From a virus, in the UHGV virus genome UHGV-1390708: a stretch of DNA of 40,460 nucleotides. One strand, given 5' to 3'. The notes below the pieces were generated by a model that saw only the letters and a list, made by a program, of their open reading frames with translations, had not been told where the DNA came from and did no database searches. Position 1 is the first letter of the stretch. Each line of letters opens with the position of its first letter. The position numbers were made by a program, and so were the translations under genes. Positions 424-30,028 of this stretch are shown here, piece after piece.

Positions 424-1581
424 TCACTCCACCTTTTCATCAAGCCAGTCCGCCCACCACTGCATCATTTCTCTGCGCTTATCGAGATACTGAGCATGGT
501 TGTAAATTCCGCGCACAGATCCGCCGTTGGCATGTGCAAGTTGCACTTCAATAGCATCAGCAGGCCATTCGTGCTCGTTCATAATCGTGCTGAATTCATG
601 CCTGAATCCGTGACCGCTTTCCAGGCCCTCATAGCCGATTCGTTTGATCACAAGTAATACCGCGTTCTCGCAGATTGGCTTCTTCTTATCGTTGCGCCCG
701 GAAAAAACAAACTCTGATACTTGTTTGGTGATTGAGCTTAGCGTAGTGAGAAGTTCAATCACCTGGTCTGACATAGGAACAACATGAATTTTGCGTCCCT
801 TCATCACACTGGCGTCGATGGTGATAATCCTGTTTTCAAAATCGACGTTCTTCCATTGCATGGAGCGAAGCTCTTTCGTTCTTAGGGCTGTGTAGCGTAA
901 AACTTTGGTCGCAATGAGCGATACGATACTTCCTGAAAATGTTGCCAGTGCTTTGTTGAATGCCGGGATCTGGTCGGCAGGTAAAAATGGGAAGTTCTTC
1001 TTGCGGTATCCCTTCATGGCGTCTGCAAGGTCAGGTGCCGGGTTGTATTTAGCCCTTCCGGTGACAATAGCGTAACGGAAAACTTCGCCGCATCTTCTGC
1101 GGGCTTTGTTGGCTCGCTCCATTGCACCGCGATCTTCAAACCTGCGGATTACTTCCAGCAGTTGCATCGGCTCAATATCCTGAATCTCAAGACCGCCGAT
1201 GATGGGTAAAATGTCGTCATCAAACATTTTGGCAAGTTCAGTCGCATAGCCTACTGACCAGACTTGCTTCTTGTGCTCGTACCATTCTTTGTAAATCGCA
1301 CTAAAGGAATTGTTGTTAGACGAAGCCTTTTTCGCCTTTACCGGATCGATGCCAACCGAGATGTCTTTCCTCGCAGTCCATGCCTTATCCCTTGCCTCCT
1401 GCAAAGTCATTAGCGGATATTTTCCTACGGTCAGGACTTTCTCCTTACCGTCAATCTTGTAGCGAAGCTGCCATACCTTTTTCCCGGATACAGGGACATA
1501 AAGGTACAGGCCATTACCATCTAGAAGGCGGTATGGTTTTTCTTTCGGCTTTGCTGCTTCAATCTGCTTAACGGTGAGCAT
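424..1581 (-). CDS. int: Tyrosine integrase, P4/IntS-like. It is 385 aa from the Met at 1581; the track ORF extends to 1617.
   Basis: N-terminus MLTVKQIEAAKPKEKPYRLLDGNGLYLYV is a DUF4102-type arm-binding domain. The C-terminal catalytic region contains HGFRHEFST. It lies about 160 nt from an argW-type att core. Length and start fit my recollection of KplE1 IntS. Confidence 0.9.
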   Translation of the reverse strand: MLTVKQIEAAKPKEKPYRLLDGNGLYLYVPVSGKKVWQLRYKIDGKEKVLTVGKYPLMTLQEARDKAWTARKDISVGIDPVKAKKASSNNNSFSAIYKEWYEHKKQVWSVGYATELAKMFDDDILPIIGGLEIQDIEPMQLLEVIRRFEDRGAMERANKARRRCGEVFRYAIVTGRAKYNPAPDLADAMKGYRKKNFPFLPADQIPAFNKALATFSGSIVSLIATKVLRYTALRTKELRSMQWKNVDFENRIITIDASVMKGRKIHVVPMSDQVIELLTTLSSITKQVSEFVFSGRNDKKKPICENAVLLVIKRIGYEGLESGHGFRHEFSTIMNEHEWPADAIEVQLAHANGGSVRGIYNHAQYLDKRREMMQWWADWLDEKVE

Positions 1582-1741: not shown

Positions 1742-1757
1742 ATGGTGTCCCCTGCAG
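1742..1757 (-). other. attP: attP core. Its reverse complement, CTGCAGGGGACACCAT, is the 3' end of a tRNA (argW-type) acceptor stem plus ACCA.
   Basis: atggtgtcccctgcag is read directly. It is flanked by int on the left and xis on the right, and neither flank continues as a tRNA. Confidence 0.75.
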
Positions 1758-1815
1758 ACATCTACTTGAAGCAGCAGGGGATTGATTGGAATGGTGTTTT
1801 TTAGATGTGAGAAAT

Positions 1816-1836
1816 ATTTTACCCGCTATTTTACCC
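1816..1836. repeat. Two direct ATTTTACCC repeats 12 bp apart on the xis side of the att core.
   Basis: attttaccc at 1816-1824 and at 1828-1836. The second copy overlaps the xis stop codon. Confidence 0.5.
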
Positions 1837-2031
1837 ATTGGCGCGGCTTAAGAGCTTATTTTTGAATTCACAATGGTCACGATATAACCATCTTGCTCGC
1901 CCGTGGATAACTTTGGCTTTTGGCAGGTCGCCGGACTTAATCCGGTCATAGATGAAGGTTTTACCGAAGCCAGTATCGGCCATGATGAATTTCAAATCAA
2001 CCAGTGAATCAGGTTGTAGTTCGTGTTGCAT
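1831..2031 (-). CDS. xis: Excisionase / recombination directionality factor, TorI-like (AlpA-type winged helix), 66 aa.
   Basis: Sequence MQHELQPDSLVDLKFIMADTGFGKTFIYDRIKSGDLPKAKVIHGRARW matches my recollection of KplE1 TorI. It is adjacent to the att core, with GGAG about 10 nt upstream of the ATG. Confidence 0.85.
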   Translation of the reverse strand: MQHELQPDSLVDLKFIMADTGFGKTFIYDRIKSGDLPKAKVIHGRARWLYRDHCEFKNKLLSRANG

Positions 2032-2050
2032 GAGTGCTATCTCCGAATAG

Positions 2051-2066
2051 GGAATCGAACCTGCAA
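2051..2066 (-). other. Isolated tRNA T-arm fragment. Its reverse complement is TTGCAGGTTCGATTCC.
   Basis: Contains the canonical T-loop GGTTCGATTCC. No matching 3' T-stem or acceptor stem is adjacent. Confidence 0.6.
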
Positions 2067-2073
2067 ATCAGGC

Positions 2074-2099
2074 AAGAAAAAACCGCCATCAGGCGGCTT
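2074..2099 (-). terminator. Intrinsic terminator upstream of xis on the minus strand.
   Basis: Minus-strand hairpin GCCGCC-TGAT-GGCGG followed by TTTTTTCTT. Confidence 0.6.
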
Positions 2100-2256
2100 G
2101 GTGTTCTTTCAGTTCTTCAATTCGAATATTGGTTACGTCTGCATGTGCTATCTGCGCCCATATCATCCAGTGGTCGTAGCAGTCGTTGATGTTCTCCGCT
2201 TCGATAACTCTGTTGAATGGCTCTCCATTCCATTCACCTCTGACTCGGAAGTGCAT
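2089..2256 (-). CDS. Small conserved lambdoid early-left protein, 55 aa (MHFRVRGEWNGEPFNRVIEAENINDCYDHWMIWAQIAHADVTNIRIEELKEHQAA).
   Basis: Not in the track because it is under 60 aa. GGAGA lies 7 nt upstream of the ATG at 2256. The stop falls inside the terminator hairpin. Confidence 0.6.
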   Translation of the reverse strand: MHFRVRGEWNGEPFNRVIEAENINDCYDHWMIWAQIAHADVTNIRIEELKEHQAA

Positions 2257-28609: not shown

Positions 28610-30028
28610 ATGCCGATTCAGCAACTTCCGCTTATGAAAGGTGTCGGCAAAGACTTTCGAAACGCCGACTATATCGACTATCTGCCAGTGAATATGTTGG
28701 CTACACCCAAAGAAATCCTCAACAGCAGCGGATATCTTCGCTCATTCCCTGGCATTGCCAAACGTTCTGATGTGAACGGTATATCGCGCGGCGTCGAGTA
28801 CAACATGGCGCAGAGTGCTGTATATCGCGTGTGTGGGGGCAAGCTGTATAAGGGCGAAAGCGAAGTCGGTGACGTCGCTGGAAGTGGTCGCGTATCAATG
28901 GCGCATGGTCGGACATCTCAGGCTGTAGGCGTTAATGGTCAACTGGTCGAGTATCGCTATGATGGCACGGTTAAAACCGTCTCAAACTGGCCTACAGACA
29001 GCGGATTCACACAGTATGAGTTAGGCTCAGTCCGCGACATTACACGCTTACGTGGGCGTTATGCGTGGTCAAAAGACGGAACTGATTCATGGTTTATCAC
29101 TGACCTTGAAGACGAATCGCATCCTGACCGTTATAGCGCACAATATCGCGCAGAATCGCAGCCTGACGGCATCATCGGCATCGGAACATGGCGAGACTTC
29201 ATCGTATGCTTTGGTTCATCAACGATTGAATATTTCTCCCTGACTGGTGCAACCACCGTTGGTGCCGCTTTGTATGTCGCACAGCCATCGCTGATGGTGC
29301 AGAAAGGTATTGCCGGGACTTACTGCAAAACGCCATTCGCTGATTCTTATGCGTTCATCAGCAATCCGGCAACAGGTGCGCCGTCTGTGTACATCATCGG
29401 TTCCGGTCAGGTATCACCAATCGCCAGCGCGAGCATTGAGAAAATCCTCCGCTCCTACACTGCTGATGAACTGGCTGATGGTGTGATGGAATCGCTGCGA
29501 TTTGATGCTCATGAGTTGCTGATTATCCACCTTCCGCGCCATGTTCTCGTGTACGACGCATCTTCAAGCGCCAATGGTCCGCAATGGTGTGTACTGAAAA
29601 CAGGCCTGTATGACGATGTGTACCGCGCTATCGACTTCATTTACGAAGGCAATCAGATAACGTGCGGCGATAAGCTGGAGTCCGTGACCGGGAAATTGCA
29701 GTTCGATATCAGCAGCCAGTACGACAAGCAACAGGAACACCTGCTGTTTACTCCGTTGTTCAAAGCAGATAACGCCAGAGTTTTCGACCTTGAAGTTGAA
29801 TCTTCAACTGGCGTTGCGCAGTACGCTGACCGCCTGTTCCTCTCTGCAACCACTGACGGCATCAATTACGGTCGTGAGCAGATGATTGAGCAGAATGAAC
29901 CGTTCGTTTACGACAAACGCGTTTTGTGGAAGCGGGTCGGACGCATCAGGAAAAATGTCGGCTTCAAATTGCGTGTTATCACGAAGTCACCTGTCACTCT
30001 GTCAGGTTGCCAGATAAGGATTGAGTAA
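28610..30028 (+). CDS. Tail hub / packaged-DNA stabilisation protein (P22 gp10-like), 472 aa.
   Basis: Its size is the same as I recall for P22 gp10, and its position matches. Confidence 0.85.

Follow-up and report, generated by a model that had tools for sequence, protein, structure and literature searches.

Several recombination directionality factors (RDFs), namely P4 Vis, 186 Apl and P2 Cox, control early phage promoters, and some of them control their own promoter. To our knowledge, no such site in its own leader has been described for TorI, the RDF of KplE1, a defective prophage of Escherichia coli K-12. Menouni is said to have addressed Rho termination in KplE1 in 2013. RDFs have been treated as regulators of early phage promoters (PMC7498355). 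In KplE1, TorI binds five sites of attL, with the cores GTTCG, GATCG or GTCCG, and mutation of GTTCG abolishes TorI action (Panis et al. 2010, PMC2951348). TorI and IntS together repress PintS through these attL sites, and the published TorI footprints comprise five sites only, all on attL, while PtorI was described as uncharacterised and the control of excision seems to rest on RDF expression (PMC2951348). Furthermore, recombination in vitro works with a 135-bp attR that starts at the 3' end of torI (PMC3509656).

The DNA analysed here, a stretch of 40,460 bp (hereafter the window), belongs to a P22-like phage of the Sf6/HK620 group. On its minus strand, the recombination module is organised in the order lambda-orf55-like gene (2256..2089), intrinsic terminator, 48-nt leader, xis, attP core and int. 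The hairpin and T-run terminating the lambda-orf55-like gene occupy 2080..2099 and are immediately followed by the left border of the xis module. The xis gene (1831..2031) encodes a TorI-type RDF of 66 aa, all 66 residues of which are matched to TorI (PDB 1Z4H) with an E value of 6.6e-43. Two arm-type repeats GGGTAAAA (1817..1836) overlap the 3' end of xis in the P arm, approximately where the attR active in vitro begins. The attP identity core CTGCAGGGGACACCAT (1742..1757) is directly preceded by GTAGATGTC (1758..1766), possibly a core-type half-site for IntS, and is followed in the P' arm by the pentamers of TorI sites I1 (1731-1735), I2 (1711-1715), I3 (1668-1672), I4 (1658-1662) and I5 (1648-1652), all on the minus strand. 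An IntS-type tyrosine integrase with Arm-DNA-bind_3, Phage_int_M and Phage_integrase domains is encoded at 424..1581, on the same strand.

The leader itself contains, on the minus strand, (i) the hexamer TTGCCT (2070..2075), a putative -35 element of the promoter that the records of HK620 and Sf6 predict, for which CCCTAT (2047-2052), 17 nt downstream, is a weak -10 candidate, leaving a spacer that the box would fill, (ii) a conserved 14-nt box, CAGGTTCGATTCCC (2050..2063), whose family consensus is CAGGTTCGATTYCC and which includes the pentamer GTTCG (2056..2060), and (iii) the xis Shine-Dalgarno sequence GGAG (2041..2044). The TTCGA of the box lies 28 nt upstream of the xis ATG in this phage. 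An ATTCG just upstream of GGAG, 12 nt downstream of GTTCG, is a near-copy of the pentamer, and several relatives have GTTCG or GTCCG at this position.

Most of the box coincides with a piece of a bacterial tRNA gene. Indeed, the reverse complement of positions 2051-2066, TTGCAGGTTCGATTCC, of which the window holds a sole exact copy, is identical at 16 of 16 positions (minus strand, 2066..2051) to nucleotides 46-61 of the annotated argW gene of E. coli K-12, that is, to the end of the variable region, the 5' strand of the T-stem, the T-loop and the first two bases of the 3' strand of the T-stem. This identity ends on both sides of the fragment and goes beyond generic T-loop similarity. The attP core, also present in a single copy, corresponds to nucleotides 61-75 of the same annotated gene plus one T. 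The two elements abut in argW with a one-base overlap at position 61, which bears out the statement of the first-pass annotation that they are contiguous in one tRNA; the last C of the fragment is all that it has in common with the core block. The interval 1758-2050 between them contains xis and its leader. No tRNA gene was found in the window by ARAGORN, and no tRNA match was found by Rfam in 1600-2400. That the fragment is a chance likeness to a generic T-loop is hardly conceivable: the motif GGTTCGAnnCC is widespread, but the number of exact 16-mers expected by chance is 1.9e-5 per window (40,460 bp, both strands), and the match is to the very tRNA used for integration, abuts the core and recurs in many lineages. 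Chance resemblance is effectively refuted, and the fragment is a real, non-random tRNA-identical element.

An identity block with the 3' end of argW is known from the attP of Sf6, HK620, KplE1 and Kapi1, and the box is likewise identical to a piece of the target-tRNA gene. Unlike that block, it contains no crossover or overlap sequence, lies away from the arm-type sites and is dispensable in vitro, and it therefore cannot act as an att site. Indeed, it is located about 200 bp beyond the start of the 135-bp attR; since this attR is active in vitro (PMC3509656), the box is dispensable for recombination and stands outside the recombination site proper.

The same leader is present in HK620, Sf6, the CUS-3 record and KplE1, and the fragment is conserved, as the first-pass annotation had asked of relatives, in HK620, Sf6, KplE1 and about 80 E. 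coli proviruses. In KplE1 the gene upstream of the leader is the unrelated yfdT, and among 79 E. coli proviral loci the leader ATTGCCTGATTTGCAGGTTCGATTCCCTATTCGGAGATAGCACTC is found behind three different terminators. Homology between the upstream contexts breaks at the terminator T-run, 10-15 nt upstream of the fragment. Because the contexts diverge there, these alignments place the fragment inside the TorI-attP-IntS module, and not as a left-over at the module edge.

Lambda has the orf55 terminator in common with the window, followed by a pI cII site, TTGCGTGTAATTGC, and an xis gene that are its own. TTGCCT is the first half of a TTGC-N5-TTGC repeat, which the HK620 annotation gives as a cII site. 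It could be proposed that TTGC-CTGAT-TTGC (window 2063-2075) is the cII site of a cII-activated promoter comparable to pI, and that the box merely fills the promoter spacer. A promoter and a cII site are entered at precisely this place in the records of HK620 and Sf6, and the cII site of lambda pI, upstream of and overlapping the xis start, occupies the homologous place after the same terminator and before xis, also with TTGC repeats. Against this, the spacer is N5 in the window and N6 in lambda (TTGC-GTGTAA-TTGC, 29079-29100), the gene order is xis-attP-int, unlike lambda, the first half reads TTAC in K-12 and in about a fifth of E. coli loci, and the conservation of the repeats does not follow that of the box, as they are absent from the other box-keeping genera. 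KplE1 moreover lacks a cI regulator module (PMC2951348). A promoter upstream of xis would also make RDF during integration, and its hexamers are too weak for a sigma-70 scan, which in 1600-2400 returned PintS only and nothing upstream of xis, with TTGCCT-17-CCCTAT below threshold. A cII-activated promoter thus has a rather low probability. The xis gene may instead be transcribed by read-through from upstream, in which case an operator in its leader would be a roadblock at best.

In attB, the T-loop lies directly left of the crossover region. At 27 att sites of relatives, aaTTCGATGTA is followed by TGCAGGGGAC, in register with the tRNA sequence TTCGATTCC followed by TGCAGGGGAC; the attP half-site of most relatives, TTCGATGTA before TGCAGG, compared with TTCGATTCC before TGCAGG in the tRNA, thus has a T-loop-like TTCGAT directly beside the core. 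From this register, the leader box appears as a second, separate copy, attP keeping its own T-loop-like half-site, which argues against a tRNA half split off by xis. In the window (1758-1790) and in the attP and attR of loci L015-L163, a conserved inverted repeat is also visible, consisting of CCCCTGC, about 8 variable nucleotides, aaTTCGATGTA and TGCAGGGG; in its left copy, the first bases of the core appear as their reverse complement, and the two copies could be core-type sites.

The half-site beside the core raises the question of whether the box is an isolated core-type half-site of IntS, i.e. a copy of the left half-site of attB that serves as a decoy or repressor site for the catalytic/core-binding domain of the integrase. 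In attB, the stretch that borders the crossover region on its left has the sequence of the box, the corresponding attP half-site of relatives is TTCGATGTA, and IntS represses its own promoter by binding att sites (PMC2951348). Core-type sites, however, are normally weakly bound and arranged as inverted pairs around an overlap region; the box has neither partner site nor overlap sequence, and the attP half-site of this phage, GTAGATGTC, is less box-like than that of relatives, so that this reading is very unlikely.

The box was followed beyond E. coli in species-representative genomes and viral contigs, with TorI and divergent TorI homologues as queries; an alignment-based viral scan had returned only 100%-identical E. 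coli loci, and divergent TorI protein queries were then used. In Citrobacter-, Enterobacter-, Serratia-, Pantoea- and Edwardsiella-type modules, whose TorI proteins share 74-95% identity, the TorI genes are preceded by the box CAGGTTCGATTYCC, while the leader around it has diverged beyond recognition. Across 21 lineages, the mean pairwise identity of the 13-nt box core is 0.896, compared with 0.608 for the third codon positions of xis and 0.867 for the first and second positions. In 16 of these lineages, the distance from TTCGA to the TorI ATG is 27-28 nt. Tandem copies of the box occur in L136/L137/L139, L158 and L015, in the forms CAGGTTCGATTCCCGTCAGGTTCGATTCCC with a period of 16 and GTTCGATTCCCGCGTTCGATTACC with a period of 13 (L136, L137 and L139 at about 1455-1490; L158; L015). 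A variant, CAGTTCGATTTCC, found in two lineages (L125/L129), is less T-arm-like and matches the CAGTTCG form of the attL TorI sites. The box was not found in Klebsiella-type modules, where xis overlaps the upstream gene, nor in those of Dryocola, Tatumella, Arsenophonus, some Pantoea and the Proteus type. As a neutral scar could not stay so intact at such divergence, the alignments indicate that the box is under selection.

Two further observations were made in the course of this comparison. In Proteus-type modules (L188-L192, L030), TorI homologues of about 75% identity are directly followed by a convergent integrase gene; these modules have no att core between the two genes and no upstream box, and thus a different layout. 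Short contigs of metagenome-assembled genomes labelled 'Actinomycetes bacterium' (L016) and 'Parachlamydiaceae' (L033) carry an enterobacterial-type TorI module with the box, which is probably due to contamination or mis-binning.

The first-pass annotation had interpreted the fragment either as the remains of a longer attP into which the xis cassette was inserted, or as the scar of an older att site. Neither proposal fits the comparisons well. A passive, functionless relic, in which an attP with at least 30 nt of argW identity was split by xis or an older att site left a scar, would account for the exact 16/16 identity abutting the core in argW, for the extra tRNA-matching edge bases that vary among lineages as if from a whole-T-arm ancestor, and for the T-loop-like TTCGAT of relatives' attP, which suggests that attP homology to the tRNA was once longer. 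An insertion of xis is disfavoured by the location of the fragment within the module, not at its edge, and by the T-loop-like half-site that already takes the place beside the core, so that attP lacks nothing that could have ended up on the far side of xis. A scar is disfavoured by a box core conserved across genera well above neutral sites (in rounded terms, 0.90 against 0.61), by its fixed distance to the ATG, by its tandem copies and by the two lineages with the less T-arm-like CAGTTCGATTTCC.

Intermediates were likewise absent from the genomes surveyed. A chimeric query made of argW 1-61 and the xis leader gave no full-length match in 5,426 complete E. coli genomes, and all torI-side matches start exactly at argW position 46; in none of the 5,426 genomes does the argW sequence ahead of torI exceed these 16 nt, and no fusion of argW with the xis leader was found in them. 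In the phage collection, the T arm, core and P' arm are contiguous only in prophage-derived records that include the host argW, and in virion genomes the match starts with the first core base. The phages with an uninterrupted T arm and core that the first-pass annotation proposed to look for were thus not found among virion-derived genomes. With no intermediate or longer homology in E. coli or phage genomes, a functionless relic is quite unlikely. Elsewhere in the collection, an unrelated 441-aa integrase lies beside a full argW copy in vB_EcoS-733R5 (L180) and Klebsiella phage 1 LV-2017 (L181); the 733R5 record also contains host sucrose-utilisation genes, and hence host flank. These elements have nothing to do with the TorI-attP-IntS module.

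The box is probably derived from a T arm, to judge from two features of the alignments: the ATTCC that follows GTTCG is not required by other TorI sites, and the additional tRNA-matching bases that border the box vary from lineage to lineage. At the 5' edge, E. coli has TTG and many lineages have TT; at the 3' edge, Serratia and Pantoea have TG, which gives a full CAGG/CCTG stem. A deep tRNA ancestry of the box is therefore plausible.

The presence of the 16-mer in both argW and the module has had a consequence for the annotation of CUS-3. Its GenBank record (CP000711) labels TTGCAGGTTCGATTCC as "attL core" and "attR core" (L004 1-31, L001 1-16); it begins at the argW T arm, continues with the normal core and IntS, and has the box as its end. 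The UTI89 prophage is identical over its final 1,783 nt to the end of this record, and in UTI89 the leader, torI, a core without one G, and dsdC come after the box (L182 240-570). Since this identical prophage end continues to torI and the core, the CUS-3 record evidently stops short of torI and the true attR, the box having been mistaken for an att core. A different integrase with a T-loop core in CUS-3 was also considered; it is ruled out by the T arm, normal core and IntS at the start of the record, and by torI and the normal core after the identical UTI89 prophage end. In lysogens, the 16-mer is repeated, in argW and before torI, with torI and the true core beyond it, as in UTI89. The attR core of UTI89 (L182 549-563), CTGCAGGGACACCAT, is one G short of the 16-nt core; the missing G may impair excision, and may account for the choice of the other 16-bp repeat as the core. 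The box and argW form a second 16-bp direct repeat in lysogens, of the same length as the true core, and prophage-boundary callers based on direct repeats can repeat the error of the CUS-3 record.

The reading preferred here, for which the chances appear about even, is that the box is a conserved leader element of the TorI/Xis gene, passed on together with the TorI-attP-IntS module, of which element the fragment is the E. coli-lineage version, and that it acts as a DNA operator which copies or mimics a T arm. Indeed, the box carries the TorI pentamer GTTCG on the same strand as the attL sites, preceded by CAG as in I1 and I3, and site I1 (CAGTTCGCTCCC) has the same GTTCG-N3-CC pattern. In 41 unique leaders, TorI-class pentamers, mostly the box itself, were found 36 times in the sense orientation and never in the antisense orientation, for about 5.5 expected. 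A second pentamer, 12 nt downstream and overlapping the ribosome-binding site, is present in five lineages. Some TorI lineages do without the box, which counts against an operator. One further GTCCG pentamer lies in the xis coding region, on the sense strand (window 1932-1936), and may be due to chance: 41 coding sequences contain 14 pentamers, for about 23 expected.

Compared with sites I1-I5 of KplE1 attL, which are operators of PintS, the putative operator is found in the same module and on the same strand, has GTTCG after CA(G), and stands before a recombination gene. It differs in lying on the other arm, some 300 bp away from the crossover and outside the DNA needed for recombination, and in occurring singly or as a pair 12-16 nt apart (12, 13 or 16 nt between repeated pentamers or boxes in leaders), whereas the attL sites form arrays phased by 10/20 nt. 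Furthermore, the box is conserved in its 3' half, ATTYCC, and corresponds to the argW T arm; the TorI site proposed within it is a putative one. As ATTYCC is not common to I2-I5, something besides TorI may constrain this part of the box. The resemblance to P4 Vis, 186 Apl and P2 Cox is that of a small winged-helix RDF with one DNA-binding specificity for both att and a promoter or leader, and the difference is that the candidate TorI site copies the bacterial tRNA arm of attB.

A constraint of another kind would be an RNA leader element, in which the box hides the Shine-Dalgarno sequence or forms a T-arm-like hairpin for an RNA-binding factor and thereby controls translation or stability. The fixed distance between the box and the Shine-Dalgarno sequence would suit such an element, and in minimum free energy (MFE) folds AUUUCC repeatedly pairs with GGAGAU or GGAGGU in Citrobacter-type leaders, UUCGA pairs with UCGGA in the E. 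coli type, and a 6-bp stem GACAGG/CCUGUC forms in Edwardsiella-type leaders. These stems, however, are lineage-specific and short (4-6 bp; entire leaders fold with -5 to -13 kcal/mol), the canonical form of a T arm, with a 4-5 bp stem and a 7-nt loop, appears in the Serratia type only, the best-conserved half of the box, CAGGTTCG, is mostly outside the stem that occludes the Shine-Dalgarno sequence, and Rfam gives no significant match (sub-threshold STnc130, E 0.12, and isrK, E 0.8). An RNA element is consequently unlikely. A conserved T-arm RNA hairpin, in particular, was rejected, as the MFE folds give weak, lineage-specific stems. The sub-threshold STnc130 match (window 1981-2108, plus strand; 24 bits against a gathering score of 55) runs antisense to the xis start and leader and is driven mostly by the bidirectional terminator hairpin.

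The box is situated between the upstream terminator, or the weak -35-like TTGCCT, and the ribosome-binding site; if it is an operator, TorI bound there would damp xis expression. IntS could help TorI at the box, its likely half-site in attB having the same T-loop sequence. With xis damped in this manner, the ratio of RDF to integrase would be kept within a narrow working range. The resemblance of the box to the argW T arm would follow from recombination proteins having evolved to read the argW DNA beside the crossover, and the box would then be a copy or mimic of the left arm of attB, probably acquired from a whole T arm long ago, rather than a displaced attP half. That the phage keeps a copy of the tRNA arm of attB before xis, through which TorI, perhaps with IntS, senses and throttles RDF production, is a tentative proposal and, taken as a whole, an unlikely one.

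No paper discussing the box was found, and a full-text search for its sequence matched papers on tRNA probes only. The box is ordinary in kind, being a cis element of a well-studied recombination module, yet it is undescribed. Strongly conserved, carrying the TorI pentamer and placed 27-28 nt before the start codon, it offers a concrete and easily mutated candidate for the control of torI. If the proposal were true, the tRNA-arm mimic would be the missing control point of torI expression, and the module would contain a feedback loop built by mimicking a host tRNA gene and conserved across Enterobacterales.
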